IMG/VR virus record: IMGVR_UViG_3300008988_000001
DNA length: 62,648 bases
DNA from: a virus
Direction: 5' to 3' (one strand)
Shown here: positions 3,571-56,139 of the stretch, in pieces
Layout of the letters: each line of letters begins with the position of its first letter
Numbering within the stretch: the stretch's first letter is position 1
Notes under the pieces: model-generated
What the model was told of the DNA's origin: nothing
Seen by the model: only the letters and a program-made list of their open reading frames with translations
Databases searched by the model: none
Program-made: the position numbers and the translations under genes

Positions 3571-3580
3571 GGGATGCAAT

Positions 3581-5464: not shown

Positions 5465-5468
5465 GGTG

Positions 5469-5936: not shown

Positions 5937-5984
5937 GAAGTGAAAAAATGTTCCGCCTGAACAACATAGCACGGAGTCGATAAA

Positions 5985-6155: not shown

Positions 6156-6162
6156 TTATAAA

Positions 6163-6594
6163 ATGCCAATGTTTAAAAACGAAGCAGAATTTAGGGCCTT
6201 CATGGCTGGACGGAAACAGACAATCCCGCCGGGCCTCTCCCATGATGAATGGTTGCCGCTGTATAGAAAGCAGCAGAGCACGAACAAGCACCATAACGTT
6301 ATTTGTGAAGCGGACAGGCTGAAGTTCCCGAGCAAGAAGCACCGGGCGCACTATCTGACGTTGAAGGCCATGCAGCAGAACGGAGAAATAGACTGGTTTC
6401 TGCGCGAAGTTCCTTTTGATCTTATCGGCCATTATGAAAGTGGGCGTATCGTGCGCCATTACGTTGATTTTATGATCCGTCTGCCAGACAAAACATTTCG
6501 GTATCAAGAAGTCAAAGGGCGTGATCTGGCCATGGGGAAGCTGAAAAGGGTTCAGACAGAAGAAATTTATGGAATTAAGATTGAGGTGATTTGA
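6163..6594 (+). CDS. DUF1064-like PD-(D/E)xK nuclease (RecU/resolvase-like)
   Basis: Pattern KFPSKKHRAHY..L...GEI......PF.L......YVDFMI......YQEVKG...GKLKR matches the DUF1064 layout as recalled. Confidence 0.6.
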   Translation: MPMFKNEAEFRAFMAGRKQTIPPGLSHDEWLPLYRKQQSTNKHHNVICEADRLKFPSKKHRAHYLTLKAMQQNGEIDWFLREVPFDLIGHYESGRIVRHYVDFMIRLPDKTFRYQEVKGRDLAMGKLKRVQTEEIYGIKIEVI

Positions 6595-6595
6595 A

Positions 6596-7276
6596 ATGCC
6601 ATTGCAGAAATCAAAAGGTCAAATGTACCCATGGGTAACTCATACCCATTGTCACCTGGGCGGTGAATGTCCGCATAAATGCGTTTACTGCTATGTCGAT
6701 CATTTCCCGTTTGGCCGGCCAAGGAAATATCAAGGTGAACTGCGCCTGATCGAGAAGGAATTTTCTGTAAATTACGGGTCGGGAAAGACGATTTTTATTG
6801 AGAATTGCAATGATCTATTTGCTTTTGCAGTTTACCCAAATATCATTAACGGAGTTCTTGAGCATTGCTGCATGTGGCCAGAAAACGAATACGTGTTCCA
6901 GACAAAAAACCCTGACCGATATCATGGCACGTATCAGCCATTCCCACCCAAAAGCATAAGGGGCTGCACCATCGAAACGAACAGAGATTACCATAACATA
7001 AGCCGTGCGCCTGGCCAGATGGAGCGTTATTATGCAATGAGGAAAATGTCGGGCCGCAAATTCATCACCATTGAACCAATTATAGACTTTGACGTTGACG
7101 TTCTATCTGCATGGATGGACATTATACGCCCCGAATTTGTCAACATCGGAGCGGACAGCAAGGGTCACAATCTTCCAGAGCCGACACCGGATAAGATTCG
7201 CGGCCTGATTTCCAAGCTGAATGAATACGGCATTGAGATTCGAGAAAAGCACAACCTGGAAAGGATATTGAAATGA
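6596..7276 (+). CDS. Phage Gp37/Gp68 (DUF5131)-like protein with a CX3CX2C radical-SAM-type cluster motif
   Basis: CPHKCVYCY motif near the N-terminus. Downstream blocks IFIENCNDLF, FQTKNP, ITIEPI and NIGADSKG resemble the Gp37/Gp68 family order. Confidence 0.55.
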   Translation: MPLQKSKGQMYPWVTHTHCHLGGECPHKCVYCYVDHFPFGRPRKYQGELRLIEKEFSVNYGSGKTIFIENCNDLFAFAVYPNIINGVLEHCCMWPENEYVFQTKNPDRYHGTYQPFPPKSIRGCTIETNRDYHNISRAPGQMERYYAMRKMSGRKFITIEPIIDFDVDVLSAWMDIIRPEFVNIGADSKGHNLPEPTPDKIRGLISKLNEYGIEIREKHNLERILK

Positions 7277-7716
7277 TCAAAAACTACACATCAACAGTAC
7301 CGGTAAGCCGTAGCGTCCAGCACATTGAGGATTGCCTGATCCGACATGGGGCAAAAAACATCATGAAAATGTATGACGATGACAAAAAGCTCGAATCCCT
7401 GTGCTTTATTATCAGCGTGGACGGGAAGGATATGCCCTTTAAGCTCCCTGCCTCGGTGGACAAGGTTGAAAAAGTCCTCCGTGCGACCGTCCGGCGCCCA
7501 ACCGCTCAAACCAATGCTCGGATAGCTGATCAGGCAGAGCGCACAGCCTGGAAACTCCAAAGCGATTGGGTTGATATCCAAATGAGCCTGATCGAATTGA
7601 ACCAGGTTGAGATCCTACAGGTCTTTTTGGCCTATGTTTATTATCCGGCCCAGAAGCAGACGTACTTTGAAAAGATCAAAAACGGCGGGTTCTTGCAACT
7701 GACGGAGAAAACATGA
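7273..7716 (+). CDS. Hypothetical protein
   Basis: 147-aa ORF with an ATGA overlap with the upstream gene. Confidence 0.5.
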   Translation: MIKNYTSTVPVSRSVQHIEDCLIRHGAKNIMKMYDDDKKLESLCFIISVDGKDMPFKLPASVDKVEKVLRATVRRPTAQTNARIADQAERTAWKLQSDWVDIQMSLIELNQVEILQVFLAYVYYPAQKQTYFEKIKNGGFLQLTEKT

Positions 7717-7762
7717 ATAATAAAGAAATGTCGGATGAAGAGTTGAAAGAAGGAGGTATAGA

Positions 7763-7948
7763 ATGCCAAAAATGATTAAATACACACATCCGGAATGGGA
7801 GAGCGCTTTAATACTTCATCCGGAAGAACCGGCAATAGATATTATCAAAGACTTGAATGACGATGATTTTGATATGAGTTTCCTGAACAAGACGGAGATA
7901 GAAATGACTCGACATGATATTGATCATCTTTCGGAATGGGATGGATGA
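7763..7948 (+). CDS. Hypothetical small acidic protein
   Basis: 61-aa ORF with a GAAGGAGG RBS upstream. Confidence 0.4.
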   Translation: MPKMIKYTHPEWESALILHPEEPAIDIIKDLNDDDFDMSFLNKTEIEMTRHDIDHLSEWDG

Positions 7949-8270
7949 AATGACTAACTATGAAAAGTTTTTAGAACAAATTAAAAATGATCCAGAAATT
8001 ATTTGGCTTGCGGCGAAAGAACAAGAGGCAGAAATAATTACTCTCCGCCAGCGGGTGAATGAACTGGAAGCACAACTTCCATTCGGGTATGCGGTAGACT
8101 ACTGGGAGTTGCAAATCGAGAAAGACAAATACAAAAAGCAAGCCGAATCAGCTCAGGCAGCGGTGGAGGCGATGGAAAAACTGTGCGCCATGAGCCCTCA
8201 ATTTTACTCATACAGCCATGTTATAAGAATGGTTATAGATGATTATCAGGCCACGAAGGAGGAGAAATGA
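7941..8270 (+). CDS. Hypothetical coiled-coil protein
   Basis: ORF 7914..8270. The ATG at 7941 overlaps the upstream stop and is the more likely start. Confidence 0.45.
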   Translation: MDEMTNYEKFLEQIKNDPEIIWLAAKEQEAEIITLRQRVNELEAQLPFGYAVDYWELQIEKDKYKKQAESAQAAVEAMEKLCAMSPQFYSYSHVIRMVIDDYQATKEEK

Positions 8271-8668
8271 GCATTGAGCGATGGAGGCCAAAGATTAAAA
8301 AGTCCTTAACGAGTCAAAATTTTGAATTGAGAATGTGGACCGATAAGGCTGGCGAGTATGTTCTTTATACTGATTACGCCACTCTCCGCGCAGAAGTGGA
8401 GCATCTAAGAGGCGGCAAGTTTTCCGACCGTGACTATACAGCAATAAAATCCAAGTGCGAAGACCTTCAGGTAGAAGTGGAGAGGTTGAAGTGCTGTGGG
8501 AATTGCGATTTGTTTGTTGCAATAGATGGTGAACTGGTTTGTCAGAATGCCCCGGTAGTAAATACCTTGGAAGATAAAATAGATTATCTTAAATGCAAAA
8601 ATGCTCATAGGGTTTGTAAGGATTGGCAATCCGACAACCTAACCAGAAAGGAGCGGGAGGGAGAGTAA
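8267..8668 (+). CDS. Hypothetical protein with a Cys cluster (CCGNC...C...C)
   Basis: 133-aa ORF with an ATGA overlap with the upstream gene. Confidence 0.45.
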   Translation: MSIERWRPKIKKSLTSQNFELRMWTDKAGEYVLYTDYATLRAEVEHLRGGKFSDRDYTAIKSKCEDLQVEVERLKCCGNCDLFVAIDGELVCQNAPVVNTLEDKIDYLKCKNAHRVCKDWQSDNLTRKEREGE

Positions 8669-8817
8669 TGAATTCATTAGAGAGATTATTGATGTATTAT
8701 ATCGGAAATATAGTTGTATTTATAACTCTTGGGATTGCTGGTTTTAGTACCATAGAAATTTCATTGGCATGTATTGTTGTTATATTATTTTATATTCTTA
8801 TTGAGGTAACAATATGA
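8668..8817 (+). CDS. Small membrane protein (49 aa)
   Basis: TAATG overlap with the upstream stop and a GGAGGGAG RBS. Two hydrophobic helices (IGNIVVFITLGIAGF, LACIVVILFYILI). Confidence 0.4.
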   Translation: MNSLERLLMYYIGNIVVFITLGIAGFSTIEISLACIVVILFYILIEVTI

Positions 8818-8858
8818 CACTTAAACAACAATTCACATAATGGAGAGGAAAGGATGAA

Positions 8859-9104
8859 GTGATGATACTAGTTATGGCGGTTAATAAAATCCACTTTGAG
8901 CATTGGTGTAGAGAGGTTGGCTTAAATCCAAATAACAATAACTCTGTCAGGTATGTATTTAGCCCAAATCAGCTACGAGGAATAATTGGAAGAGTCGATA
9001 TAGAGATAATAACACTTCCGGGGTGGTATCAACAAAAGGACGAAAGTGTTTTTAGTGAACTCGATGCACTGGTTAAAGAGCATTATAAAAGGAGAACCCG
9101 ATGA
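8859..9104 (+). CDS. Hypothetical protein
   Basis: 81-aa ORF with a GGAGAGGAAAGG RBS. Lies in an AT-rich stretch. Confidence 0.4.
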   Translation: MMILVMAVNKIHFEHWCREVGLNPNNNNSVRYVFSPNQLRGIIGRVDIEIITLPGWYQQKDESVFSELDALVKEHYKRRTR

Positions 9105-9131
9105 CCACCGAAGACAGGAAGAGGGAGAGTA

Positions 9132-9320
9132 ATGACCAAGCAAATATTAATATATAAATGCGAAGAATGTCCACATGCAATTTTTGACCGACAAGATAGT
9201 CCTGAATATTGGGGGAAATGGTATTGTTTTAATGATAACATCAGAGAGCCTATGTTTTTGGAAAATACTGACGTTTCGCACGAAACGCCTAGGTGGTGTC
9301 CGTTAAGTGATTATAGGTAA
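9132..9320 (+). CDS. Small Cys-rich (zinc-ribbon-like) protein
   Basis: 62-aa ORF with a CEEC...C...WCPL pattern and a GGGAGAG RBS. Confidence 0.4.
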   Translation: MTKQILIYKCEECPHAIFDRQDSPEYWGKWYCFNDNIREPMFLENTDVSHETPRWCPLSDYR

Positions 9321-9384
9321 TTAAATGAACTTGACCGCCGCCAAAATCTATGACAGCCATTCCTCACTTGGGGGAGGCATTTGT

Positions 9385-10566
9385 ATGAAAGGTGGAATTT
9401 ATTCATCTGAAAAATGTCCTATATGCGGCGGTAGCTTTAAAGATAATTCAAGAACTGCATTGATCTGTCCTGATCATCCAGGGCAAAGAGCGACACATTT
9501 TATAGTAAAATTTGAAGATGTTTGGAAACGTTTTAAGTCTTATGATATGGCCTCACGGCTCCTTAACGGACTGAGGTTTAAGACTGACGAGGGCACATTC
9601 GACAACAGAGATTATAAAAAAGATAATCCTCTTGGGTTTCAGACTCAAATAGAATCATGGTTAAAAAAGAAGCAGGAAAAAGTTGTACCGAAAAACTTTA
9701 AAAATATCGAAAATTACGCCAGCAAAGCAATTTCATATTACGGCCAGAAGAACATCAAAGAAATAGACTATGCCGAACTTGAGGACTTCATGACCTCATT
9801 GACCGGTCTGTCATCAAAAACAAAATCAAATATCATAAACGCACTTTATAACTTTTGGGGATGGATGGTCAAAAGAAAGGTCATTAACCGTCAGCAGTTC
9901 CCCGATTTTCCCGACCGTTACGATTACGAGCTTGGATATCGGAGGATTGTTTCACGAGAGCAGCAGGCGGCAATTCTGGAAGAAATTAAGCGCCTGACGT
10001 ATCACATCAACCCCAAAATCTGGATAGGCTGTAAATTCCTATCGACGTACATTTCAATCCGCCCTGGGGAGCTCGTGGATCTTCAGGAGGGCAATATCGA
10101 CAAAGATGAAGGATGGCTTGTATTCCCGTTCCCAAAGGAAGATAAATATAAATCAGTGCCGATCACCAATGAGGATCGGGAAATATTGAAGACGTTCCCG
10201 CCGGCAACAAAACCGGATATGCCATTTTTCCGGCATACGAAGTACCATGGCCAGAAAGAAGGCACGCCGTTTGGCCAAAAGGTTTTTTACCGATGGTGGA
10301 AAGAAGCATGTAAGAACTTGGGGATTAATGACGTGGATCTGTACGGTGGGACGAAGCACAGCACGGCCAGGCACTTAGGAAAAACATTCTCTCCCGAGCA
10401 GGTAAAACGAGCCGCCATGATTTCAACAAATAAAGCTTTTGAGCGTTATTTTTCCGTGGAACCGAATGCAATCAGGTCAATTTATGAGCAGGCCCAGGGT
10501 GCAACTGGAATGCAACCGGAAAATAAGCCCCTGGAAAATGGCAAGGTATTAATATTTAAAGAGTAA
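9385..10566 (+). CDS. int: Tyrosine recombinase/integrase with an N-terminal zinc ribbon
   Basis: ISIRPGEL (Arg), KHSTARHLG (HxxR) and FERYFS (Tyr) near the C-terminus. N-terminal CPICGG...CPDH. GGGGGAGG RBS before the ATG at 9385; the ORF is open from 9325. Confidence 0.85.
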   Translation: MKGGIYSSEKCPICGGSFKDNSRTALICPDHPGQRATHFIVKFEDVWKRFKSYDMASRLLNGLRFKTDEGTFDNRDYKKDNPLGFQTQIESWLKKKQEKVVPKNFKNIENYASKAISYYGQKNIKEIDYAELEDFMTSLTGLSSKTKSNIINALYNFWGWMVKRKVINRQQFPDFPDRYDYELGYRRIVSREQQAAILEEIKRLTYHINPKIWIGCKFLSTYISIRPGELVDLQEGNIDKDEGWLVFPFPKEDKYKSVPITNEDREILKTFPPATKPDMPFFRHTKYHGQKEGTPFGQKVFYRWWKEACKNLGINDVDLYGGTKHSTARHLGKTFSPEQVKRAAMISTNKAFERYFSVEPNAIRSIYEQAQGATGMQPENKPLENGKVLIFKE

Positions 10567-10568
10567 GT

Positions 10569-10595
10569 TGGTCGGGGCGGCAGGATTTGAACCTG
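10569..10595 (-). other. attP core candidate: 3' end of a tRNA gene (T-loop, acceptor 3' strand and CCA). No full tRNA is present.
   Basis: The reverse complement reads CAGGTTCAAATCCTGCCGCCCCGACCA, i.e. T-arm GGTTCAAATCC, then acceptor strand, discriminator A and CCA. It lies 3 nt after the int stop. No D or anticodon arm lies beyond it. Confidence 0.55.
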
Positions 10596-10641
10596 AACCA
10601 CCTAAATAAATAGTAATGATTAAACAACCTTACATAACAAT

Positions 10642-10669
10642 AAAGTGCAACTGAAACCAAAGTGCAACT
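10642..10669. repeat. Two direct copies of AAAGTGCAACT, 17 bp apart (possible integrase arm-type sites)
   Basis: Exact 11-mers at 10642..10652 and 10659..10669, beside the attP core candidate. Confidence 0.3.
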
Positions 10670-10919
10670 ACCAGTATGGTTCTTTTTTCAAAAATTCATC
10701 GCTGGAGTTCGTGAACAGATTCTTTACAAGATAGCTCCCGCCGGCGCCAACGAATACAGAGCCTACCGATTTCAGCAACTCCACGTCCGGGACCGTGCCC
10801 AGCATCATGGCCGAAAACAAATAAGTGATCGCGGCTCCGAAAGCAATCCCCAGGCCCCGCCGAATATCTTTCCAATTCAGACTAAGGAAGCAACTTTTAA
10901 TCTGATTCATAGCATTCAA
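10668..10919 (-). CDS. Small two-TM membrane protein at the end of the lysis cassette (holin/antiholin-class candidate)
   Basis: 83-aa ORF with hydrophobic segments GLGIAFGAAITYLFSAMMLG and VGSVFVGAGGSYLV. It is the last gene of the minus-strand array. Confidence 0.45.
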   Translation of the reverse strand: MNAMNQIKSCFLSLNWKDIRRGLGIAFGAAITYLFSAMMLGTVPDVELLKSVGSVFVGAGGSYLVKNLFTNSSDEFLKKEPYW

Positions 10920-11439
10920 CCGTCCTTTCCAGCTTGAGCGTGTAATCGATCAACTCAAGATAGTTTGATACTATTTGTTTGACTGTCCAATGGTGGGATC
11001 GATCAGGACCGGCCTCGCTGGGGACGGGCAAAACTTCTCCGCTGGCTTTTGAACTACTATCTCCGGTTTCACCGCGGCGCAGCCCGTGAGAATTAAAATA
11101 ATAAGTAGCATCACTGATAATTTTTTCATCGTCTTCCTCCAGGATAACTTGGGTTTTAATCTGCTGAACCTCATAACGAATTTCCGCGGTCGTCGTCTGT
11201 ATCTGCTGCTGCGAGGCCTGCGCTTTCTTGGCCGCTGAGAGATTGGCCTTATAATCCTTGATTTGTCCCTGCAGGTCGGCGTTGGCTTTTGTCAGGGAAG
11301 TAATTTCGTTGGTCTTCTGGACGATAATAATTTCCTTGTCTTTGATCGTTCCCCGCTGCCAGAGATACAACCCTCCTACGACGGCAACAATTACCGCCAG
11401 CGCGCAAAGAATGAGATTTTTAGGGTTTAAGAACCACAT
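10897..11439 (-). CDS. Inner-membrane spanin (Rz-like)
   Basis: N-terminal TM ILCALAVIVAVVGGLYLW followed by a coiled-coil region. Lies directly downstream of the endolysin and contains an embedded lipoprotein ORF. Confidence 0.7.
   Translation of the reverse strand: MWFLNPKNLILCALAVIVAVVGGLYLWQRGTIKDKEIIIVQKTNEITSLTKANADLQGQIKDYKANLSAAKKAQASQQQIQTTTAEIRYEVQQIKTQVILEEDDEKIISDATYYFNSHGLRRGETGDSSSKASGEVLPVPSEAGPDRSHHWTVKQIVSNYLELIDYTLKLERTVECYESD
10971..11129 (-). CDS. Outer-membrane lipoprotein spanin (Rz1-like), fully embedded out of frame in the Rz-like gene
   Basis: MKKLSVMLLIILILTGCAAV has a signal peptide plus lipobox LTGC. The mature part is Pro-rich (CPSPARPVLIDP). Confidence 0.75.
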   Translation of the reverse strand: MKKLSVMLLIILILTGCAAVKPEIVVQKPAEKFCPSPARPVLIDPTIGQSNK

Positions 11440-11443
11440 ATTT

Positions 11444-11914
11444 TTATCCTATAATCTCTCCGCCAGCTTTTTGATAAACCAGGCGAAGGCTTTCAAGTTT
11501 GTTTTCATGTTGTCCATATCCGGCTCCAGGTAACGACGCCCATCGGCTTTTGCATTTACGCACGGACACATCGAATCGTCCGGCATCGACGTCCGCCAGC
11601 GCTCCACATTCTCGAATCATCTGTATGGCGATTTTATCCTGGCTGTCATGCCCGAAGTCCGGAAGATTCAGTTGCCTCTTATAGGCATCAAAATACTTGC
11701 CCAATACCTGATAACGGCCGGCTGCAGTCGAATAATCTTTCTTTCCGTTACGGATGAATTCGTCTTTTTTCTCATAAAGTTTAAAACGGGGGTGATCTGA
11801 ATAATCATGGAATAAAGTGCCTCCGACGATGACGTTATATCCGTTATCGCCTAAGCGGATTGTTCCCTCGCTCGTCGCTATCATGTCCAAAAATGCTTTT
11901 CTGTTCTGGTTCAT
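11444..11914 (-). CDS. Endolysin, lambda R-type lytic transglycosylase (GH104-like)
   Basis: NRKAFLDMIATSEGT, GYNVIVGG..F.DYSDHP, AAGRYQ and WASLPGAGYGQHE are collinear with the lambda R sequence as recalled. GGAGGG RBS before the ATG at 11914; the ORF is open to 11953. Confidence 0.9.
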   Translation of the reverse strand: MNQNRKAFLDMIATSEGTIRLGDNGYNVIVGGTLFHDYSDHPRFKLYEKKDEFIRNGKKDYSTAAGRYQVLGKYFDAYKRQLNLPDFGHDSQDKIAIQMIRECGALADVDAGRFDVSVRKCKSRWASLPGAGYGQHENKLESLRLVYQKAGGEIIG

Positions 11915-11915
11915 C

Positions 11916-12158
11916 CTACCCTCCAGCAACAATCTTTTTAATCCATCCGGCAATCCCGATTACCAGGACTGCAATTATCCCACCGATGAATGCAGTCAGA
12001 GTCACCTTCCCGATAATTGACTGGCAGCCTTCAACTCCTGATTTAAGGTTCTTGATGAATTGGTGATGTTGATAATGCTCTTCCCGGTCAATATAAAATG
12101 CTTCCATTTCCTCGCGCATTACTTCCCGCATAGCCTGTTTGATTTCATCTTGTCCCAT
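11916..12158 (-). CDS. Holin candidate (single C-terminal TM)
   Basis: 80-aa ORF immediately upstream of the endolysin. Charged N-terminus, then LTAFIGGIIAVLVIGIAGWI. Confidence 0.45.
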   Translation of the reverse strand: MGQDEIKQAMREVMREEMEAFYIDREEHYQHHQFIKNLKSGVEGCQSIIGKVTLTAFIGGIIAVLVIGIAGWIKKIVAGG

Positions 12159-12175
12159 CGACAGAACCCCCTTTT

Positions 12176-12619
12176 TTAGTTTCCGACCAGCTCCAAAACC
12201 AGCGTTGTTTTGCCGCTGTGGACGTCATTATTCGTGATGTTCACGGAGATATCGCCTGTAATGAGAGCGGGGATAGCGAACGCGCCGGGCCCGGCGGGAA
12301 TCCATGTTTTGCTTGAGGCGTCGATAAGATCAGCGCCCTTTCCGCCCAGGAGGTCAACGCCGTATTCGTCGGTAATCGTGCAATCGGTTGCATCGGTCGG
12401 TGCCGTGTCTGCGTCGGGGATTGCCTTGACTGAATTGAGCTTCAGTCCTCTGATATCGAAATAAAGCCCGTCTGCTGTAACGGCCAATGGATTGAGTACC
12501 GTTGCCGGAAATGATCCATTGGCTGCATCGCCTATGCAGGTTAAAACGAGTTTCGCAATCTGCGGACGGCCTTGCTGCGAGTGTATTCTTGTCAATACGC
12601 CTGTAATTGTTCCAGCCAT
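12176..12619 (-). CDS. Hypothetical virion protein
   Basis: 147-aa ORF with an AAAGGAGAA RBS. Lies between the terminator after the giant gene and the lysis cassette. Confidence 0.5.
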   Translation of the reverse strand: MAGTITGVLTRIHSQQGRPQIAKLVLTCIGDAANGSFPATVLNPLAVTADGLYFDIRGLKLNSVKAIPDADTAPTDATDCTITDEYGVDLLGGKGADLIDASSKTWIPAGPGAFAIPALITGDISVNITNNDVHSGKTTLVLELVGN

Positions 12620-12641
12620 GATTTATTCTCCTTTCGATAAT

Positions 12642-12682
12642 AAAAAAAGCCTAAGCGCCGGTTTCCCGGACAACTTAGGCTT
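12642..12682 (-). terminator. Rho-independent terminator downstream of the giant gene
   Basis: Minus-strand RNA: AGCCUAAG...CCGGGAAACCGG...CUUAGGCU, followed by UUUUUUU. Confidence 0.7.
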
Positions 12683-12753
12683 AAAGTCCCTTCAACTGTG
12701 AAGGCTGTCAGTACCTACTCACGACTGCATGATACAGCGTGTTCTATTTTTTT

Positions 12754-15700
12754 TCAATCTATTAAAATTGCCCGTTCCTTTTTTGAAGGCCGCTGCATTC
12801 TTTTTGCCTGATTCCTGAGGCTCTCCGAGGTTATGAACGTCTCACCCCTTATGCTTTTGACCTTATCGTTAAATTCCCGGACATCAGCCACGATCTTCCT
12901 GTATTCGTCTTTATCGCGGCCGCCAAGTATCCACGCCCGATATTTTTCATAAATGGCGTTTCTCATGTCTGCAAATTTCGCCTGTTCGCGGTGCCCTTCC
13001 CACGTTCTTTCGGACAAAACAGCTTGATTGGTGGACCTGAACCCCACTGCGCGCGCGGCCGTCTCTCCGGTGCCGGGAGCAAACGGCTTCCCTTTTTCAT
13101 CCCAAACCCTACGGCTATTTCGCGTTGAAACACCCTCTTCTCTTTCCCTCATGGCCCGGAGCGGATTTGCAAACCCTGAAGGAAGTAAATGCTCTGCCGC
13201 GCGCCCTGCATTCCCACGGCTAAGATTCTCCCCGGCTTCTTTTATTTCGGTTGCCACGCCGCCGATAGCGCCGGTCAGATCCATGAAGTTCTTCGGTACG
13301 CCCACCCCAATGGAAAGAGAGCCCGATATATCAATGCCGGCGGCTCCGGTAAGACCATGACGCCCGATCTTTTCAGCATCGGCGCCCAGGTGCTTCCTGA
13401 TTTCATCCCAAACCCACTTCTCCGGATCCCGATCTTCACCAAACAGGGCTTTCAGGATTACCCCGGCAAAACCGAAGATGGCATCTTTAAAGGGCAGCGC
13501 AGCGCCGCCGGCCAGGACCAGTGGAGACAAGAAGGCAAACATGGCCCCTTTGATATTGTGCTTCTTCAGGCCCATATCATAAAGCATCTGAAGGTAGTTG
13601 TGGCCGAACTTCTGATAGACGTAAATCATCTGCCCGAGCTTTGCCGCCGGATTTGCGCCCTGTGCCCACATGGGCATAGTGGACTTCCCATAAACACCGT
13701 GGGCCTTGTCAGTGGCATCCTTTGCCCTTTCAGCCGCTTCGACGTGTCCCAGTCCTGAGCGCCGCGCCAGCCGGTAGGCCGCAAGAACCGTCGTCCCACG
13801 ATTCCATCTTTCGGACTTTCCAAAAAGATACATGGAGCCATCCATCATGGATGACCATATTCGGGAATGAGCCTTAGATATCTCGCCCAGGGCCTCCCGC
13901 GTGTACTGTGCATCATCCCAGCCTTTTTTATGGACCTCATTCATAAATGATGCTTCATCCGGGTTGGAGAGTTTTCTTCCAGCCATCAGAGCCGCATAAT
14001 CTTTTCCGGCAATTCCGAGCTCGCGCAGGATCCCGAACATCGAGCCCTTGCCGCCCAGCGCATATTGATGAATCGCCGCCGGCGCTGTTGTAACAATAGC
14101 GGTCATATTTACCGTCAGGGAGCGGAGGTTAAAGCCGAGAAATTTGAATGTTGCAATAGATTTTGCCAGTCCGATAACCCGGTCTATCGGTTCGGCGTTC
14201 CGCAGCTGTTCTTCGATATAGTTCTGAGCGGTCTGAAATGCCTGCGGGTCTTTCACCGGATCGATACCGCCTATTTGCTTGCCTTCAAACTTCTCCCCGA
14301 GCAACTGCTTCATGGCCAGCCGTGCGACTCTCGCCTTTGAAATCCCCCCGGACAGGCTATTGATGTACTGAAGATGGCGTTGCATAGGATCTTCGATAAA
14401 TCCGCGTACAACTCCATTCCCGCGGTGAATCATGGTTGATCGGAATCCCCGGGCCTTGATTGCGTTCGATACTTCACGGAGAACTTCCTCATTGAATTTG
14501 ACTGTCAAATCATTTCTCAATTCACTTTTCTTGCTCAATTTTTCCAGGGCGGAATCAATCAGTTTCGCCGTGGCCACCGCGTTCACATCCTGATAAATGG
14601 TTTCCGGGATCCGCTCGACTTCTCCAACGTTGTAAATCGTCCATCCTTCCCGTTGCAGTTTGTTGGCCAGGCGGTGAGCGCCCAATTCTGAGCCTCTGTG
14701 CTCCCGGTAGTATTCCCGATTTTCTTTCATGGGTCCGTGTTCTTTATAAGCCTGAACCTTCCAGTTCCCGGATTCGCGCAGTCTCGGAGCGTAAAAGCCT
14801 TTCCACTCTTCCATTTGGGCAAGGGCGCCCTTGAGAGTTTGTTTCAGTTCGTTAAGATCGGGCGTCTCGCCCCTGAAATTGGCTTCCTCGATGAGCTCCT
14901 CGATCATGGTCCGTAACTGCTGGGTCTGTAAATCAAGGGCCTTATCGTAGGACTGCCGGTATAATTTCCATACTCTGATAGTATCCTCAGTTGAATTCTT
15001 CCGGATATGATCCTCAAAATCTTTTAATTGCTGATCGAGGGTCCGGGAAGTGTTCCGCTTCCATGACGTATCGCCTTCATCTATGATCTCCTGCAGGCGT
15101 TGATATTCCGGGGATACTTTGCCGGCCATCCGGTCCGCAAGAGACAAACCCTTATTCTTGAGCGCTTTGGCCGCCTCAACAACGGTGTCCTCGGGCGCGT
15201 CAATATCGTCGGCTGCATTTAGGTCATTAAAGGTTTCGTGATAAATCTCGTTACGATCACGTATGAACAGTTTAACGACATTCCTGATCTGCGGGTGACT
15301 AAACCATTCAGGCGACTTTAACATCGCTTCCCACCAGGTCATCTGTTTTGGATGGAGTTTGTTATTGATGGTCTGGATAAGCGCGGCCGTCTCGTCCTTC
15401 AGATACAGATTAAGGACTTTCGGGTCTTTGCTTACGGGCGGGTCTTGCTGGGCGCGGATGGAATACTGCTCACCCCGTTCAAGTTTTGCTTTCAACATTT
15501 TGGCTATTTTGCTTGTTGTCGCCGGATCATCTATTATTTCTTTATTTTCGGCATATCCTTCTTTAAATTGAAGCGTCCGGTCTGTTATGCCTTCCTTTTG
15601 CGCGAACCATTTTATCCACTGAGCCGGAGAGTTATGCGCTCCGTCAAAGTCATAGATAACGCCATCTATCCGCGCTCCGTAATGTTCAGCGTTATTAAGA

Positions 15701-18700
15701 TTGCTTGCCATACGCACCAGTTCACCGCGGCCCGTAGATTCGATAATAGCCCTGGCACACACAAGGCAACCACCATCAAAAGGACCAGCCCATATCGGTT
15801 TATGATTTAAGAGGATATCCCAAAATTTATCGTCCCTATAAACATTTCTAATGGCGTTGCCTATTTCGTCATGTTTGACTGAATATGCTTCGTCAGTCAG
15901 TGCGCTTTTATCTGTTGTTCTATTATAAACAGAACCACTTTTAATGTCTCTCGTAATTCCCTTGACCGTCCTAATTCCGAAAGCGTTCACCAGCTTATCA
16001 ATGAAGTCCTGAATCTTCGCAACGGTCCGGCCCAGTAAGCCCTTCGGTTCTTTGGTTAGTGCATCAGCAATGAAGTTTGCGCGATCTTCGGCGCCGCCGA
16101 TATCCTTTTTGTTGGCGGTTTTAAATTTTCCTTCTTCGGCAAGGTTCTTGATATGGCGCTGTAATAAATTGATTTCATTCTGGTTTAAAACGCCTATGTC
16201 TTCCATGAGATGGACAGACTCATGATGGAGTGCCCAGCGGTCGGCTGCACCGCGCACAAGTTTTATAACACCCGTGCCCAATTCTTTGTTATAGCCATAT
16301 CCGCCAGAGACAACTTCATCCTGTCCGAGATTTTTTCTCCCGTATCCGATGCTTAAATTCATTTCATTGATTGATATGTGATTGACCTCGGCAATGGTTA
16401 CTATCCTTCCATTATTTAAACCAATCATGAACCCGCCGGGTACTTCTCGGACTTCCTGTCCCTTGAAAGCATTCTGAACATCAGCCAGAGTGGGCATGGG
16501 AATGGTTTCGACCTGTTCTGCAGCCGCGTATTTCTCCTTGACAAGATCATAATCAAAGAGTATCTTTTTACCAGAGCCGAGTTTGGAGCCTCTCACTGTG
16601 GGCAATTGGAGCCCACTTGTCACGCTCCAAGCACGGCTTTTCCCTTTATTCATATACCGAAGCAAGCCGTCATTGATCCACTTTACGAATATACCATCAG
16701 AATCCTTCCCGTAGACACTCGCGATATCATTCACGACATTGCGCCCTAACTGCTTCGATAATCTAATCGCAGCGACGATGGTTTTACCGTCCTGCTGAAG
16801 TTCTGTCATAACAACAAGACTATCCGCTTCTGTGGCAGAATCAAATATCATAATGGGATCGTCAATATGCGCCGGTAACTGTTTCAATGTTTCAATTGAA
16901 ATACTATGTTTCCCTGATGCAACCTTTTCCACCGTTCCCTGTGTGATAACCAAGGGGAGTTGTTCGGCTCCAAGCCTTTCGAGGACTTCCGGAGTCCGGC
17001 CAATCGTAATTGGTTCCAAGCGGTTCGTGATTTTCCCGGCCGCAAAGTCGTCAAGTTGTTCGGAAAAAGACGCATTTTCCCGGATGGCATCCCTTTGTTT
17101 GACCGAATACATCTCCACGCCTTTGTCGGTTTCGCGTGTCTGTAATATTCCGATAAAATCATCAAAAGCCTTGTTGATTGCAATCCGTTCTTTCCCCTCT
17201 GGGTATGGCCGGGCCACAAAACCGTCAATCATCGGCAGAAATATTCCGCCGTGGGCATGGTAAACAAGAAAGTCACTCTGTCCGCCCTTCTCGGCTATTT
17301 TATCTTCAACATAGGCCGCAAACGCCCGCGCCGCCATTTCGTGTGGTTCGCTCCAATAATCTCCGGTTCTAGCCTGGTCCATTTTCTTTGCTTCGATGGC
17401 GTAATTGGTAGAGACTTTCTTTGTCTTTTCTGTCTTGTTGTTTGCATCATTCAGCATTTTCAACCTTGCCGAATAAGTATTCATCGCACCTCGAAGTTGG
17501 TCAAGACTCCCTGTTCTTTCAGAGTTAAACCCCTGCCGATTGCGCACGGACTTCATTATCGCGTTAATATTTTCAAGGGTGTCGTTTGTCCAGCGGTGAG
17601 CCGTTAGCCTGCCGTGGGTTGCCCTGCTCATTCCCGCCGGTCTTTGCATGGGCGTGTTTGCGCCTTCTGGATTATTGTACCTGAAACTCGTTTCCAAATC
17701 ACCGCCTTCAATAAGGATATTCGACAACCGGTCAAATTCGGAAAGCTGTTCCGCTGTTGCAGGCTTCCCGTATTTTGCCCATTTTTTATTATACTTTACC
17801 CAATCGGAATGATCCTCTTCGAGGCTCCGGCGGATTCCCTTTAATTCATTGGAAAGGTTCTCTCTGGCAGCTGATAAGAATCTGTCCGCAACTTTCGTAT
17901 CCTCAACGTACTGTTCAGCCTTTTTATACATTCCTTCCATTAATGATTTGTAGGACGCCTGCAGCTCAGGACGCAGCTTAGAGCGGATGCTTTCGCCGTG
18001 GCTTTGGAATGTATGGCTATCGGCTTGGCGTGGATATGTCAGATCACCGCGTTTATTTGCTGTTTTGTTTGACGTCGCCTTTGTGTCAATTCGGGCAAGA
18101 TAATGATCGAAGGAATGAAACCACTCGTGGGCCAGTGATCCCGCGCCCTTCATTTTTGTGAGGTTGATAACCCCATAGTCCGGTTCGTAATGCGCCTTTG
18201 CGCCCGAAAGCCCCTGTCCTCTGGCCCCGAAGGCAATAGCCATATCACCATTAAGCATCAATGCTTTTGGCGATACATTCAAAGCATCGGCAAGGTCAAG
18301 CAATCCATCGTAGGCATGATTCAAAACCTGTTGCCGTTCTTCCTGATTGTTCCAGTTGCCAAATTCGATAGCCCTGGGCGCGAATGTTTCATTGAATATT
18401 TCCGGCGTAGCGTCTGTCGTGCGTCGTTCAGCGCCTGTCCGTTTTGCTATTTCAGGAACAGGAAGTATCTCTTCCCCAAAGGTTGTTTTGATGTTCAGGA
18501 TTTCCTCGGCGTGTTCGGCCATGTGCTTCATGCCGTCCTCGCGGGAGGGGAATTCCTGATTGACGACCTTGAATAATTTCCGTTCGCCAACTTTTTTATA
18601 GATTGCCCACTGGCCTTTATTCTCCCTGCTTTCAAATACCCTATGGGACTGAGCCACGGCAAAAAGAGGGATTGCTTTTTCTGCCTCTTCCTGCGTCGAA

Positions 18701-21700
18701 AATACCTGCCCGGAACTTCTGGTGATCATCCCAGATTTGGCAGCTTTTGCGTTGGCAATCGTCCAGCCTGTACCGTCCAGTTTTTCAAGGGCGATAAACT
18801 GTTTTTTCCATGCAGGTTGGCCGTCGTCCTCTTTGATTATTTTTCCGCCTTTGGTATATCCGCGCTCAGCCGTATCTTTGCGTGCGCCGCCGATCTTTTC
18901 GCCGAAGTCTTCAAGCTTTCCTTCTTCTTTCGCCTGAAGCTCAGGTTCATTGGCTTCCGGTTCCCTGAACATCTCTTCATTCTTCGGCGTAACCTGCTCG
19001 GAAAGCTTCGGGCTTATCTGTGCTTCGGGATTGGTTAAAGAGAAAGTCTCGGCTTCAGATGCGCCGGGGATTTCGGATTGTTTTGATTTTACTTCTTCGG
19101 AAGAAAGTTTTGCGGGCTGTTCAGCTGCGGGTTGTTTTTCTGTTTTTGCCTGTGCGGATACATTGGCAAAGAAATATTCTACTTCTTGGGCATTGGCTTC
19201 AATTTGTTCGGGAGTATACCCTTCGCCCTCAAGCGCTCCAGCAAGCCCGGCTTCAATATCTGCACGACTCTTTTCACTTGTTCCGGCGTTAAATCCGGCT
19301 GCTTCGAGTTCTGTAAGTTGTCCTTCGATCCACTCATTTTCTGCCCTCGCTATGTCACGGTTGATTAAGGTTTCTGCTTTATCAGGAGCGTAAATCTTTC
19401 TGCCCTGGCCGGTCTTCAGAAGCTCAATAACGTGATCCCCGGACTCAATCGGCCACCCGTCTGCCTGTAATATACTCGCTAACTGGTCAGCCGTCAAGCC
19501 GGACTTCGATTTTAAAACACGCCTTGCGTCCACGTCCTGGCGGAGCAATCGGGCGTTGTAATCACCCATGGTTATTTTGAGGCCACCGAGTTCGCTGATT
19601 TTCGTAACAAGGTTCTGTGCGCCGCGGTCTCGCTTGGCTGGCTTCTGGTCAACCTTGACCATCTTCTCTTTGAGCTTCTTATAATAGATGCTCTTTCCTT
19701 CTGGAGCGTTCGGTTTATAAACTACCTCGTACCCTTCCTTCGTGGGAGTATCTTTCAGGGACTTCTGAATACGTCCAATGTCTTTCCGTCCTGCCTTACG
19801 GATGAAGATTTCGGCGGGTTCGGGTGCATTTTCTGCCGGTTTCGTTTCCGCGGACGCGCTTATGGCGTTTGGCGCGGGTTTTTCGGGCTGTTTAACCGCT
19901 GCCCGCTCGTCAAGAGATTTCTGCCTGTCCCGGTCTGTTAATGCTGCCCAATCTTTGGCCTTATATAAATTCCCGATTCTTGCTTCTTCGTCCCTTAACC
20001 ACCGCCACCTGTCGCCCCTTGTCCCTTTTTCAAGGTGTGGATGAATACCAATTTCATCAGACAGCCTTGACCGCTCTTCGCTGAGAACTTGCATTTTATC
20101 CCGCGCGTCCTCGATGTTTCTGGGAACAAAAGACCCCCCGGATTTCGCTTCATCAGCAATACCTGCTGTCGCGGCTTTGGTTTGTGAGAGAGGCGCGGGG
20201 TGTGGTTCATGTATTTTAATTAAATTGTCTATTTGGTCTGCCAGCTTTTTGGCTTCCGTTGCGCTTCTGTCCAGAGCCTCTTTCGCGGTATTATAGTTTG
20301 GTGATGATGGATCAACGGAAGGGGTTGCCTTGGCGGTTTCGCCAGCGCGTTTACGCAGCCTTGCCGCTATTATTTCGGCAACGTCTTTTCTTTCACCGTC
20401 AATAGCGTCCCTAACTGCCGTTACTACGGAATCTTCATCAATATCCAATAACGTAGAAGAGGCGGCAGCCATCGCCTTTTCCAGCGGAGTCCACTGTGCC
20501 GGCTGCTTTCCTTTTACTAATTTATTTTTTTCGTCTGCAAGAGAATCTATTTTGCTATTTAATGTGGCATTTTCGCCTTCCGACGTTGCTCCAGGTTCAA
20601 CGATCTTTTCAGCCTGTGCTTTGGGTGCCTCGGCAGGTAAAGTCCCGGTAGCGGGCAAGGACTGAATTTCCCCGGCTGGTTTTTTATCGAACAGAACTTT
20701 ACCGCTGGGCGCGATTACTCGTTTAACACTTCCCGCCGATGCAAGGTTCCCATCAGCCAGAAGAACATCACCGTTCATGCTGTTGGGTGAAACGATGTTC
20801 ACCTGTTTTTTTGTCCCATCCAGTAATTCAACCTGCAGCCCTGCGAGCCCTTCATGTTTTCCAGTTAATGCGGATTGTAAGTTATCCTCTGCCGGTTTTG
20901 TGAGTTCTGCCAGCCGCTCAGTATCCTTTTTGTATTTTTCTTGAGCATCCTGATATTCGGGCGTCCAATTCATAGCCGCATTCGTATCAAGATAATGTGA
21001 CTGTAAAGCGACGCTCTGCTTCAGATCCCTTATCTCGGTTTCGGTTTGCAACGACTCATTATCGGCTTCCCCCTCTCCTAATTTTTCAGGTACATCTTCA
21101 TCGATGTTCTTTACCGGAATTATTTTCTTAACCCTTTCCATGTCAGCCCTTACCTGGCTCATGGAATCCGGGCGCGGTTCTGTATCATCCTTTACTACCT
21201 GACTTACCTTCTCTTTCAAATTTTCAACGATAACGCCGTTGAGTCCGTCCTTCAGCGCCGGGTATCGCTCTTTGAACCGATCGACGTCTTCCTCTGTGAA
21301 AACACCGTCCTTTTGCGCGCGCTGGATGATCGTGATCGCATCGGCCGGTGAAAAGGTATGGTCACCGACTTTTCCTGTGCGCATCCCGGCGTCGATCATT
21401 CCGGAGAAAGACGCTCCAACTCTGAGGTTTTTAATATACGTGTCTTCTTCCGGCCTTTTGACCGCGCCGGTAATTCCCTGAGCGCCACCGCCGACGACTG
21501 CGCCGGTCATGCCACCAAGGATAAATGAGTTTATGTATTCATCCCATGCTTCAGCGCTGGTGATGGACTTCCCCTCCACGGCTGCCCGCTCAAGAACGCT
21601 TTGCATTGCTTCGGTGGGTGCTTCCATGACAAACTGCTGTCCGGCAACTTTCGCCATCTTTGAGAGCGTTCCGCCTGCAAACTGCGTTGCGTCCTTACCC

Positions 21701-22533
21701 AGCCAGCCAAGCCTTTTCGCCAAATACCATTCAGGCACAATATCAAGAAGGCCTGCGGGAATTGCCCCGGCGAACGCCCTCAGTGGATCGACTTTGCCGT
21801 TTTCCTGCAGCTGATCACCGGCGATAGAACCGGCTTCCATACCGATTGAAGCGCCGGCCGCCCCTGTTATGGCTCCGCCCTTGATTCCTTTTTCAATGAC
21901 CTGCTTGCCGATCATTTCGGCCACGTCCTTTGACGCACCGGCGGCGATAGCTTTTTCTATGGCCCCTTTAGCGGCTGCCTCTACTGCTTTTTTGCCGATA
22001 ACCGCCCCGGCGCCACCGCTGGCCAGAGAAAGAAGCATATTAGGAATATTCGTGGAAACGCCAAAGGCAAGATATTTTGCAAGATCGGACCCGCTTTCAA
22101 TATCAGTAAATGAGGCTACCTGCGGTTTCGGTGATACGGCCTCGACGTCGGCCAGGCCCTCCGCTCCCCATTTCTTTAAAACATCGGATTCGACGGCTTC
22201 CCCTGCCAACGCGCCCAACCCGTAACCCATGCCACGGACTTGATGAACGCCAGCCTTTAATCCTTTGGGGATCTCGCCCAAAATAGAATCGTCTTTCGGA
22301 GCAACTGCAGAAGTCCCGCTGATCAATTTATCCATGAACGAAGGCGGTTGACGGCGCTTTATGTCTTCCTGAACATGCTGGTCGATTCCCGAGTCCTTTT
22401 TCCAGGTGTCATAATCAGGATATTTTTCAGCATATCCGCCGCGTGTAAAAACATCCTTCGCAACGTCATCAAGAGGCGCATCACCGTAGTAGTCTGCATG
22501 TTTTTTCTGATATCCGAGAATGTCGAAAGCCAT
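12754..22533 (-). CDS. Giant (3,259 aa) multidomain virion protein, polyvalent/ejected-protein class. Two HExxH zincin-like modules and a PLxRFG-like C-terminal region.
   Basis: Single uninterrupted ORF. Gly/Ala-rich hydrophobic N-terminal region. HEWFH at 18115..18129 (aa 1469-1473) with EPHEMAARAFAAYVEDK downstream. HESVH at 16210..16224 (aa 2104-2108). C-terminal hydrophobic segments and ANPLRAM at 13150..13164. Confidence 0.9.
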   Translation of the reverse strand: MAFDILGYQKKHADYYGDAPLDDVAKDVFTRGGYAEKYPDYDTWKKDSGIDQHVQEDIKRRQPPSFMDKLISGTSAVAPKDDSILGEIPKGLKAGVHQVRGMGYGLGALAGEAVESDVLKKWGAEGLADVEAVSPKPQVASFTDIESGSDLAKYLAFGVSTNIPNMLLSLASGGAGAVIGKKAVEAAAKGAIEKAIAAGASKDVAEMIGKQVIEKGIKGGAITGAAGASIGMEAGSIAGDQLQENGKVDPLRAFAGAIPAGLLDIVPEWYLAKRLGWLGKDATQFAGGTLSKMAKVAGQQFVMEAPTEAMQSVLERAAVEGKSITSAEAWDEYINSFILGGMTGAVVGGGAQGITGAVKRPEEDTYIKNLRVGASFSGMIDAGMRTGKVGDHTFSPADAITIIQRAQKDGVFTEEDVDRFKERYPALKDGLNGVIVENLKEKVSQVVKDDTEPRPDSMSQVRADMERVKKIIPVKNIDEDVPEKLGEGEADNESLQTETEIRDLKQSVALQSHYLDTNAAMNWTPEYQDAQEKYKKDTERLAELTKPAEDNLQSALTGKHEGLAGLQVELLDGTKKQVNIVSPNSMNGDVLLADGNLASAGSVKRVIAPSGKVLFDKKPAGEIQSLPATGTLPAEAPKAQAEKIVEPGATSEGENATLNSKIDSLADEKNKLVKGKQPAQWTPLEKAMAAASSTLLDIDEDSVVTAVRDAIDGERKDVAEIIAARLRKRAGETAKATPSVDPSSPNYNTAKEALDRSATEAKKLADQIDNLIKIHEPHPAPLSQTKAATAGIADEAKSGGSFVPRNIEDARDKMQVLSEERSRLSDEIGIHPHLEKGTRGDRWRWLRDEEARIGNLYKAKDWAALTDRDRQKSLDERAAVKQPEKPAPNAISASAETKPAENAPEPAEIFIRKAGRKDIGRIQKSLKDTPTKEGYEVVYKPNAPEGKSIYYKKLKEKMVKVDQKPAKRDRGAQNLVTKISELGGLKITMGDYNARLLRQDVDARRVLKSKSGLTADQLASILQADGWPIESGDHVIELLKTGQGRKIYAPDKAETLINRDIARAENEWIEGQLTELEAAGFNAGTSEKSRADIEAGLAGALEGEGYTPEQIEANAQEVEYFFANVSAQAKTEKQPAAEQPAKLSSEEVKSKQSEIPGASEAETFSLTNPEAQISPKLSEQVTPKNEEMFREPEANEPELQAKEEGKLEDFGEKIGGARKDTAERGYTKGGKIIKEDDGQPAWKKQFIALEKLDGTGWTIANAKAAKSGMITRSSGQVFSTQEEAEKAIPLFAVAQSHRVFESRENKGQWAIYKKVGERKLFKVVNQEFPSREDGMKHMAEHAEEILNIKTTFGEEILPVPEIAKRTGAERRTTDATPEIFNETFAPRAIEFGNWNNQEERQQVLNHAYDGLLDLADALNVSPKALMLNGDMAIAFGARGQGLSGAKAHYEPDYGVINLTKMKGAGSLAHEWFHSFDHYLARIDTKATSNKTANKRGDLTYPRQADSHTFQSHGESIRSKLRPELQASYKSLMEGMYKKAEQYVEDTKVADRFLSAARENLSNELKGIRRSLEEDHSDWVKYNKKWAKYGKPATAEQLSEFDRLSNILIEGGDLETSFRYNNPEGANTPMQRPAGMSRATHGRLTAHRWTNDTLENINAIMKSVRNRQGFNSERTGSLDQLRGAMNTYSARLKMLNDANNKTEKTKKVSTNYAIEAKKMDQARTGDYWSEPHEMAARAFAAYVEDKIAEKGGQSDFLVYHAHGGIFLPMIDGFVARPYPEGKERIAINKAFDDFIGILQTRETDKGVEMYSVKQRDAIRENASFSEQLDDFAAGKITNRLEPITIGRTPEVLERLGAEQLPLVITQGTVEKVASGKHSISIETLKQLPAHIDDPIMIFDSATEADSLVVMTELQQDGKTIVAAIRLSKQLGRNVVNDIASVYGKDSDGIFVKWINDGLLRYMNKGKSRAWSVTSGLQLPTVRGSKLGSGKKILFDYDLVKEKYAAAEQVETIPMPTLADVQNAFKGQEVREVPGGFMIGLNNGRIVTIAEVNHISINEMNLSIGYGRKNLGQDEVVSGGYGYNKELGTGVIKLVRGAADRWALHHESVHLMEDIGVLNQNEINLLQRHIKNLAEEGKFKTANKKDIGGAEDRANFIADALTKEPKGLLGRTVAKIQDFIDKLVNAFGIRTVKGITRDIKSGSVYNRTTDKSALTDEAYSVKHDEIGNAIRNVYRDDKFWDILLNHKPIWAGPFDGGCLVCARAIIESTGRGELVRMASNLNNAEHYGARIDGVIYDFDGAHNSPAQWIKWFAQKEGITDRTLQFKEGYAENKEIIDDPATTSKIAKMLKAKLERGEQYSIRAQQDPPVSKDPKVLNLYLKDETAALIQTINNKLHPKQMTWWEAMLKSPEWFSHPQIRNVVKLFIRDRNEIYHETFNDLNAADDIDAPEDTVVEAAKALKNKGLSLADRMAGKVSPEYQRLQEIIDEGDTSWKRNTSRTLDQQLKDFEDHIRKNSTEDTIRVWKLYRQSYDKALDLQTQQLRTMIEELIEEANFRGETPDLNELKQTLKGALAQMEEWKGFYAPRLRESGNWKVQAYKEHGPMKENREYYREHRGSELGAHRLANKLQREGWTIYNVGEVERIPETIYQDVNAVATAKLIDSALEKLSKKSELRNDLTVKFNEEVLREVSNAIKARGFRSTMIHRGNGVVRGFIEDPMQRHLQYINSLSGGISKARVARLAMKQLLGEKFEGKQIGGIDPVKDPQAFQTAQNYIEEQLRNAEPIDRVIGLAKSIATFKFLGFNLRSLTVNMTAIVTTAPAAIHQYALGGKGSMFGILRELGIAGKDYAALMAGRKLSNPDEASFMNEVHKKGWDDAQYTREALGEISKAHSRIWSSMMDGSMYLFGKSERWNRGTTVLAAYRLARRSGLGHVEAAERAKDATDKAHGVYGKSTMPMWAQGANPAAKLGQMIYVYQKFGHNYLQMLYDMGLKKHNIKGAMFAFLSPLVLAGGAALPFKDAIFGFAGVILKALFGEDRDPEKWVWDEIRKHLGADAEKIGRHGLTGAAGIDISGSLSIGVGVPKNFMDLTGAIGGVATEIKEAGENLSRGNAGRAAEHLLPSGFANPLRAMREREEGVSTRNSRRVWDEKGKPFAPGTGETAARAVGFRSTNQAVLSERTWEGHREQAKFADMRNAIYEKYRAWILGGRDKDEYRKIVADVREFNDKVKSIRGETFITSESLRNQAKRMQRPSKKERAILID

Positions 22534-56104: not shown

Positions 56105-56139
56105 AAATTGATTCCTTAGTTCATCGTATACATTCATCA

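Follow-up and report, generated by a model that had tools for sequence, protein, structure and literature searches.

Giant polyvalent proteins take up 15–22% of the genome in many podophages, including Shiga toxin (Stx)-converting phages, and we know of no LPD1, PLxRFG or embedded-zincin module of such proteins with a demonstrated activity. As described by Iyer et al. 2017 (PMC5512222), polyvalent proteins are products of late genes that combine several unrelated enzymatic domains, with a metallopeptidase (MPTase) hub, PBECR/MuF_C domains and LPD1. In Bcep22-like podophages the giant gene ends the virion module ahead of the lysis genes, and mass spectrometry of CsCl-purified virions of Burkholderia phage JC1 identified 51 unique peptides of gp69, a protein of 4,515 amino acids (aa) (PMC9144972). 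In the Stx phage phi24B, gp47 (LPD5/LPD1/LPD38/MuF-C) was found by mass spectrometry to be abundant in virions but is missing from the cryo-electron microscopy map, for which the authors suggest encapsidation and ejection as the explanation (phi24B preprint). Here we analyse a gene for a 3,259-aa product, hereafter the giant protein, in the IMG/VR virus record IMGVR_UViG_3300008988_000001, a stretch of 62,648 nucleotides that we refer to in its entirety as the window.

We consider it likely that the giant protein is a capsid-packaged, ejected polyvalent protein of a 933W/Bcep22-like short-tailed phage with a Gram-negative (diderm) host, in which self-processed cargo lies between two end domains. 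Domain identities, the conservation of catalytic-type residues, gene context and modular exchange are shown here, whereas packaging is extrapolated from the virions of relatives and ejection, self-processing, the targets of the cargo and any membrane activity are presumed. The assignment to the polyvalent proteins sensu Iyer et al., made in the original prediction, is supported because the Pfam domains LPD1 and MuF_C, both matched here (Table 1), belong to the polyvalent-protein domains described by these authors. At least two unrelated effector-type domains are combined in the protein (two zincins, a MuF_C/PBECR domain, a Cys-His-Asp domain and LPD1), and its gene sits among phage late/virion genes.

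The minus-strand frame encoding the giant protein contains no internal stop, and a frame of this length at 48% GC rules out a chance origin. It closes the virion block. On the same strand, the genes for the small (TerS) and large (TerL) terminase subunits, for the major capsid protein and for a head-closure protein of the Hc3 type lie upstream of it, and downstream come a holin candidate, an endolysin gene and an Rz gene within which Rz1 is embedded. This bears out the predicted single uninterrupted open reading frame (ORF) in the virion block ahead of the lysis genes. Among the ORFs scanned we recognised no gene for a tape measure, tube or sheath, in agreement with the same prediction. The ends of the window overlap exactly over 99 bp (1–99 = 62550–62648), from which we conclude that the genome is complete and circularly assembled at about 62.55 kb (62,549 bp). 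A megablast search with the giant gene gave no match among phage records, and no record was identical to the full 3,259-aa product; a public protein library includes an identical 2,682-aa product that corresponds to aa 578–3259.

A database search with aa 1380–2320 returned 615 homologues and delimited a conserved unit from about aa 1205 to about aa 1810, here called module 1, which is matched by PHROG 30335 at 1.9e-130 and whose homologues include standalone proteins of 600–640 aa. A nearly invariant signature, DFGxKIGGA(R/K)KD, opens every LPD1-type module and may serve as a latch, cleavage site or binding motif; the motif EDFGEKIGGARKD quoted in the original prediction was found at aa 1208, and the other motifs quoted there were likewise recovered at or near the places given for them. 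Eight residues of module 1 (H1448, H1469, E1470, H1473, D1476, E1732, R1736 and F1738) do not vary across 28 sequences with 28–67% identity. E1732 lies in the stretch EPHEMAARAF at aa 1729, and the two motifs HExxHxxD and ExxARAF (or a variant of the latter) are both present in 104 of 120 homologues, spaced 68–267 aa apart. Given this pairing, Pfam LPD1 is best interpreted as one half of a split zincin, the half with the Glu helix, which a helical insert of variable length (about 230 aa here) separates from the HExxH core.

An AlphaFold2 model of aa 1200–1815 (predicted local distance difference test, pLDDT, 84.7; predicted template modelling score, pTM, 0.80) has a low-confidence linker after the opening signature, with pLDDT below 50 at model residues 20–36. 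DSSP assigned a helix at 1397–1418, strands at 1432–1436, 1447–1450 and 1455–1459 and the HExxH helix at 1467–1482, after which the model continues with the long helical insert and then a helix at 1730–1748 that bears E1732. In the model these elements follow the order of a zincin core, namely a helix, a three-stranded sheet and two helices, and E1732 is the presumed third zinc ligand. The NCBIfam family CLCA_X (NF041907) matched aa 1365–1554 with 134 bits (5.7e-39) against a subfamily cutoff of 260 bits; judged by these scores, module 1 is homologous to CLCA_X but outside the NF041907 subfamily. Its HExxH-plus-Asp signature is like that of CLCA_X (Lenart et al. 2013, PMC3650047), which occurs in phages and plasmids and often within very long proteins, and module 1 fits both this family and the phage-type MPTase of Iyer et al. 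(PMC5512222). The latter study leaves the function of LPD1 open, whereas here LPD1 is paired with an HExxH core and bears the invariant Glu.

Downstream of module 1, a MuF_C/PBECR domain scored 98.4 bits against a gathering cutoff of 27.6, and the giant protein was also matched by PHROG 616. The MuF_C alignment shows an invariant H1876 together with conserved N1935 and S1939, and the domain has a predicted RNase fold (PMC5512222). The original prediction had named the zincins and the PLxRFG-like C-terminus and had missed this domain. The second HExxH motif, HHESVH at aa 2103/2104, lies in a compact region that we call module 2. An exhaustive library search gave 414 matches, and among 83 homologues H2104 is conserved in 99%, E2105 in 98%, H2108 in 100%, E2111 in 95% and E2149 in 100%. 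Alignment of module 2 to module 1 with hhalign gave E=0.004 but a probability of only 8%, with the strands and the HExxH helices aligned. Pfam Tox-MPTase2 was matched by 2 of 18 module 2 homologues (best E 9.8e-05) and Tox-MPTase3 by one, whereas the module 2 sequence itself had no match in Pfam or NCBIfam, and a profile search of the Protein Data Bank (PDB) returned nothing significant. We conclude that module 2 is a predicted second compact zincin. The two zincin-like modules claimed at the outset are thus upheld, since the HExxH motif and the downstream Glu ligand are invariant or nearly so among the homologues of each.

Module 2 is followed by a discrete domain with the sequence GGCLVCARAI at aa 2254–2263, of which numerous standalone homologues of 130–160 aa exist. 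C2256, H2284 and D2295 do not vary among 30 sequences; the Cys stands at the start of a predicted helix, the His about 28 residues on and the Asp 11 further. Such a Cys/His/Asp pattern is typical of papain-like or NlpC-P60-type thiol enzymes, and the domain is here regarded as a putative papain-like thiol enzyme. Matches to Pfam Phage_YunG-like recur and are all sub-threshold, and a PDB profile search with the domain found nothing significant. We rejected a CxxC zinc-binding site because the second Cys, C2259, is not conserved; the Cys/His segment noticed in the original prediction therefore exists, but not as a Cys/His metal cluster. Apart from C2256 and C2259, the 3,259 residues include no cysteine. 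For the giant protein considered by itself, apart from the rest of the proteome, this cysteine content fits unfolded passage through an oxidising periplasm. On a Logan contig (SRR28285655, 3936–9016), a 531-aa protein fuses ART-PolyVal to a Cys-His-Asp domain and adjoins a 1,151-aa LPD1 protein and type IV secretion system (T4SS) genes (DotD, TraI, SLT, ATPase and secretin), a gene set which indicates that conjugative elements use the same modules.

The C-terminal domain matched NCBIfam NF032893 with 143.2 bits (E 1.1e-41), aligning aa 2580–3255 to model positions 2–671 of 681, and thereby exceeds the curated cutoff of 100 bits. Using tblastn, the C-terminus was found in giant proteins of 52 phages, including podophages of the Bcep22, PEp14 and Lastavirus types; the matches include Klebsiella phage SJM3, Erwinia PEp14, Serratia Parlo and Sinorhizobium PBC5, at 23–26% identity over 450–640 aa. 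A PLxRFG-like C-terminus with Bcep22-like kinship had been predicted and is confirmed by these results, although the motif proposed for it is not: the literal PLxRFG motif is absent, PLARFG aligns with YAPRLRESG at aa 2581–2589 (Y, P and both R invariant in the clade), and the ANPLRAM put forward instead lies about 540 aa beyond it, at aa 3122. An all-alpha AlphaFold2 model of the domain (pLDDT 69) had no significant fold match in the PDB by Foldseek, and the generic helical bundles and transporters that were returned were not taken as evidence. The only strongly hydrophobic stretch of the giant protein, aa 2994–3031, falls within this domain. Membrane activity of the C-terminus, for which the sequence offers this one hydrophobic hairpin, is conjectural. 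The C-terminal 900 or so residues, whose PLxRFG domain recurs in giant virion proteins of many podophages with genomes of ~60 kb, probably serve delivery or anchoring.

At the other end, the N-terminal domain had no Pfam family, and a scan of GTDB species genomes found no relative of it. The content of Gly plus Ala over aa 101–400 is 27–36%, and of the six GxxxGxxxG motifs in the whole protein, five fall in the N-terminal region. This region had been described as Gly/Ala-rich and hydrophobic, of which the first holds and the second holds only moderately, every 19-residue window staying below a Kyte-Doolittle value of 1.3. Most likely, this glycine-zipper domain serves virion incorporation and/or envelope insertion upon ejection. 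The charged linker that follows it gave no match in a family search of aa 551–1204.

Comparison with relatives indicates how these parts are exchanged. The window is syntenic with the 'Methanosarcina virus' MetMV (MK170447.1, 21685–47187), neighbouring tail-block proteins being 50–80% identical, and a 3,002-aa gene occupies the same slot in MetMV. The two giant proteins align over aa 1–549 at 27% identity and over a linker stretch at aa 1081–1135 (55 residues, 40% identity), whereas the rest differs. The MetMV giant ends in LPD38 in place of PLxRFG, and LPD1, MuF_C and PLxRFG had no match in it. We considered LPD38 and PLxRFG as distant homologues and rejected this, as the PLxRFG profile misses LPD38-type C-termini. 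In a distant relative, IMGVR_UViG_3300009009_000024, one gene encodes the N-terminal domain and the gene next to it the PLxRFG unit. Relatives with 56–62% identity (library proteins P0001 and P0013) are continuous across the junctions between module 1, MuF_C, module 2 and PLxRFG, and a standalone module 1 homologue, 66% identical, lies among early-type genes. No other case of module 2 directly beside a Cys-His-Asp domain occurs among the 150 library matches listed; library protein P0146 has both, about 330 aa apart. The N-terminal domain is constant within the lineage, the C-terminal unit is portable and the cargo between them is freely exchanged.

Among described systems, the giant proteins of Bcep22 (gp75), JC1 (gp69), SJM3 (4,433 aa), PEp14 and Parlo resemble the giant protein in that their genes close the virion block ahead of the lysis genes and in the NF032893 C-terminus. 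Unlike these Bcep22-like giants, it lacks DarB-like helicase/methylase cargo, has YAPRLRESG for PLxRFG and carries cargo of the 933W type (LPD1 plus MuF_C). With proteins of the 933W/phi24B gp47 type (LPD5-LPD1-MuF_C-LPD38) it shares the LPD1-type zincin module and MuF_C at 36–40% identity, in 194 phage records, whereas its C-terminus is PLxRFG rather than LPD38, LPD5 was not detected, and the second zincin and the Cys-His-Asp domain are additional. The giant protein is thus a joining of 933W-type cargo to a Bcep22-type PLxRFG C-terminus. The Cys-His-Asp domain is unlike all Pfam-modelled domains of Iyer et al. (PMC5512222). Phage N4 virion RNA polymerase gp50 is comparable as a giant encapsidated and ejected protein with an embedded zincin MPTase, but the giant protein has no RNA polymerase module, and no sequence similarity between the two was detected.

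Table 1. Features of the giant protein, its downstream neighbours in the window and the split counterparts in a distant relative (last two rows, nucleotide positions of IMGVR_UViG_3300009009_000024).
Feature	Protein position (aa)	Nucleotide position	Strand	Remarks
Giant polyvalent protein gene		12754..22533	(-)	3,259 aa + stop codon
N-terminal domain	1-550	20884..22533	(-)	lineage-constant part; homologous in MetMV giant
Gly/Ala-rich glycine-zipper core	~100-350	21484-22236	(-)	
Charged low-complexity linker	551-1204	18922..20883	(-)	K, R, D and E 25-41% per 100 aa
LPD1-type module (module 1), ~600 aa	1205-1810	17104..18921	(-)	begins at DFGEKIGGARKD
DFGEKIGGARKD signature	1208-1220	18874-18912	(-)	module 1 start
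Zincin (MPTase) core	1397-1482	18088..18345	(-)	N-terminal helix, three strands, HExxH helix
HEWFHSFD	HEWFH at 1469	18106-18129	(-)	
Pfam LPD1	1718-1800	17134..17382	(-)	4.6e-20; Glu helix, E1732 in EMAARAF
MuF_C / PBECR RNase-like domain	1870-1967	16633..16926	(-)	Pfam PF18819, 3e-28
Module 2, compact second zincin-like domain	2000-2220	15874..16536	(-)	HESVHLMED, GGAEDRANF
Cys-His-Asp domain, ~130 aa	2222-2353	15475..15870	(-)	fits no curated family
Helical region upstream of PLxRFG	2355-2579	14797..15471	(-)	conserved in close relatives
PLxRFG domain	2580-3255	12769..14796	(-)	NCBIfam NF032893
Hydrophobic hairpin	2994-3031	13441-13554	(-)	
147-aa ORF directly after giant gene		12176-12619	(-)	56% identical to MetMV gene, same position
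Lysis cassette		10897..12158	(-)	holin candidate + endolysin + Rz/Rz1
Holin candidate		11916-12158	(-)	80-aa ORF, single C-terminal hydrophobic segment
Endolysin, lysozyme-type		11444-11953	(-)	PHROG endolysin 2.7e-50
Rz-like i-spanin		10897-11439	(-)	PHROG Rz-like spanin; N-terminal transmembrane segment
Rz1 lipoprotein, embedded in Rz in another frame		10971-11174	(-)	lipoprotein signal MKKLSVMLLIILILTGC, lipobox LILTGC
966-aa protein of relative		9911-12811		59% identity to aa 79-351; own HEMFH motif
1,783-aa protein of relative		12830-18181		last ~850 residues align to aa 2401-3256, 32% identity

We propose that the N-terminal and C-terminal end domains flank swappable cargo of four predicted enzymes, namely the split CLCA_X-type zincin, the PBECR RNase-like domain, the second zincin and the Cys-His-Asp domain. 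After delivery, the zincins would cut the polyprotein into separate effectors, which would then act early in infection in the host cytoplasm. Self-processing is suggested by the argument of Iyer et al. (PMC5512222) together with the split-gene relative. Action in the cytoplasm is suggested because cysteines are nearly absent, the same modules stand beside T4SS genes, and a standalone module 1 lies among early-type genes. A more specific combination is tentative and, taken as a whole, rather doubtful: the Cys-His-Asp domains would form an undescribed family of papain-like effector enzymes, widespread both as small standalone proteins and within polyvalent proteins of phages and conjugative elements; LPD1 would be no independent domain but the zinc-ligand half of a split, self-processing CLCA_X-type protease with DFGxKIGGA(R/K)KD as its substrate or latch; and the N-terminal domain and PLxRFG would form the two functional ends of a device for ejection, the cargo being freed from it by the zincins. 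Each of the three would be new, if true.

Several points weigh against the proposal of a packaged, ejected and self-processed polyprotein. Packaging is known from the virions of relatives only, while the source genome is metagenomic and its host uncultured. To our knowledge, neither peptidase activity nor self-cleavage has been demonstrated for any LPD1/CLCA_X-type module. The top PDB match of the module 1 model by Foldseek is weak (anthrax lethal factor, E=0.18, probability 0.72), and hmmsearch finds lethal factor at E=0.22 only; the weak Foldseek result for this 616-aa model probably reflects its several domains. For module 2 and the Cys-His-Asp domain, the predicted enzymatic nature is drawn from sequence alone, the PLxRFG model is of moderate quality (pLDDT 69) with no fold relative, any role for that domain is a guess, and the N-terminal domain is too little hydrophobic to be labelled transmembrane.

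It is quite possible, if less than probable, that the zincins are instead effectors which cut host proteins of defence or the envelope and that the giant protein acts as one piece. The standalone 600-aa module 1 proteins contain nothing to process, Tox-MPTase2, matched by module 2 homologues, is a toxin-type effector domain, and an effector role is an alternative left open in PMC5512222. However, two different zincins among unrelated domains are the pattern that Iyer et al. tie to processing, and the separate genes for the N- and C-terminal units in the split-gene relative suggest that these units work separately; self-processing and effector roles are, moreover, mutually compatible. We regard as unlikely a mainly structural role as an ejection conduit whose metallopeptidases digest peptidoglycan to cross the periplasm, the proposal made for phi24B gp47 (phi24B preprint). 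The N-terminal glycine zippers and the C-terminal hydrophobic hairpin would suit such a conduit, and the genome encodes no other obvious ejection protein, but a peptidoglycan role is made less likely because Pfam and NCBIfam searches of the giant protein revealed neither a lysozyme nor a transglycosylase nor any known family of peptidoglycan peptidases. In addition, close standalone homologues of module 1 occur among early-type cytoplasmic genes and have no long hydrophobic leaders, and MuF_C is a predicted RNase fold rather than a peptidase.

Phage records label several of the C-terminal matches "DarB-like antirestriction", the annotation given to Bcep22-like giant genes, yet this likeness is limited to the PLxRFG domain, Pfam and NCBIfam detected neither an SNF2 helicase nor a DNA methyltransferase domain, and PADLOC returned no defence-system match; a DarB-like antirestriction protein is consequently a highly improbable reading. 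That the giant ORF is an artefact, in which several genes were joined by misassembly or fused through frameshifts, is barely credible. The distribution of the N-terminal and PLxRFG units over two adjacent genes in the distant relative could be cited in its favour, but the identical 2,682-aa library product, the relatives at 56–62% identity that read through the domain junctions, the 3,002-aa gene in the same slot of MetMV and the closure of the genome on itself all contradict it.

In the lysis cassette, the 80-aa ORF is the likely holin. The 147-aa ORF directly after the giant gene has no hydrophobic segment and is therefore not the holin; it may encode another virion protein. The genome is organised in three strand blocks, 1–10566 (+), 10897–53944 (-) and 54249–60450 (+), and GC skew flips sign at about 10 kb and again at about 54 kb. 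Early and replication genes presumably make up the plus-strand blocks, and no tRNA genes were found in the window.

An embedded Rz/Rz1 pair is a hallmark of phages of diderm bacteria, and together with the lysozyme-type endolysin it points to a Gram-negative host. Its closest homologues for the giant protein are found in metagenome bins that carry the labels Smithellaceae and Syntrophus. The lysis cassette and these homologues suggest that the hosts of the group are syntrophic bacteria whose abundance follows that of methanogens. The Methanosarcina host of MetMV was assigned in silico only, from loose CRISPR (clustered regularly interspaced short palindromic repeat) matches and from correlations of abundance and of tetranucleotide (k-mer) frequency (PMC7164591). 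The Gram-negative lysis cassette casts doubt on the archaeal host of MetMV, and the assignment deserves re-examination.

The giant protein belongs to a kind of protein that is already known, and is a fairly ordinary member of it rather than a new kind of system. The new points are modest and comprise the reading of LPD1 as a zincin half, the unmodelled Cys-His-Asp domain and the constant N-terminal domain. What emerges is a clean domain map in which, within one phage lineage, only the N-terminal 550 or so residues are fixed and the C-terminal unit is either LPD38 or PLxRFG. These points sharpen experiments in the tractable relatives phi24B, JC1 and SJM3.

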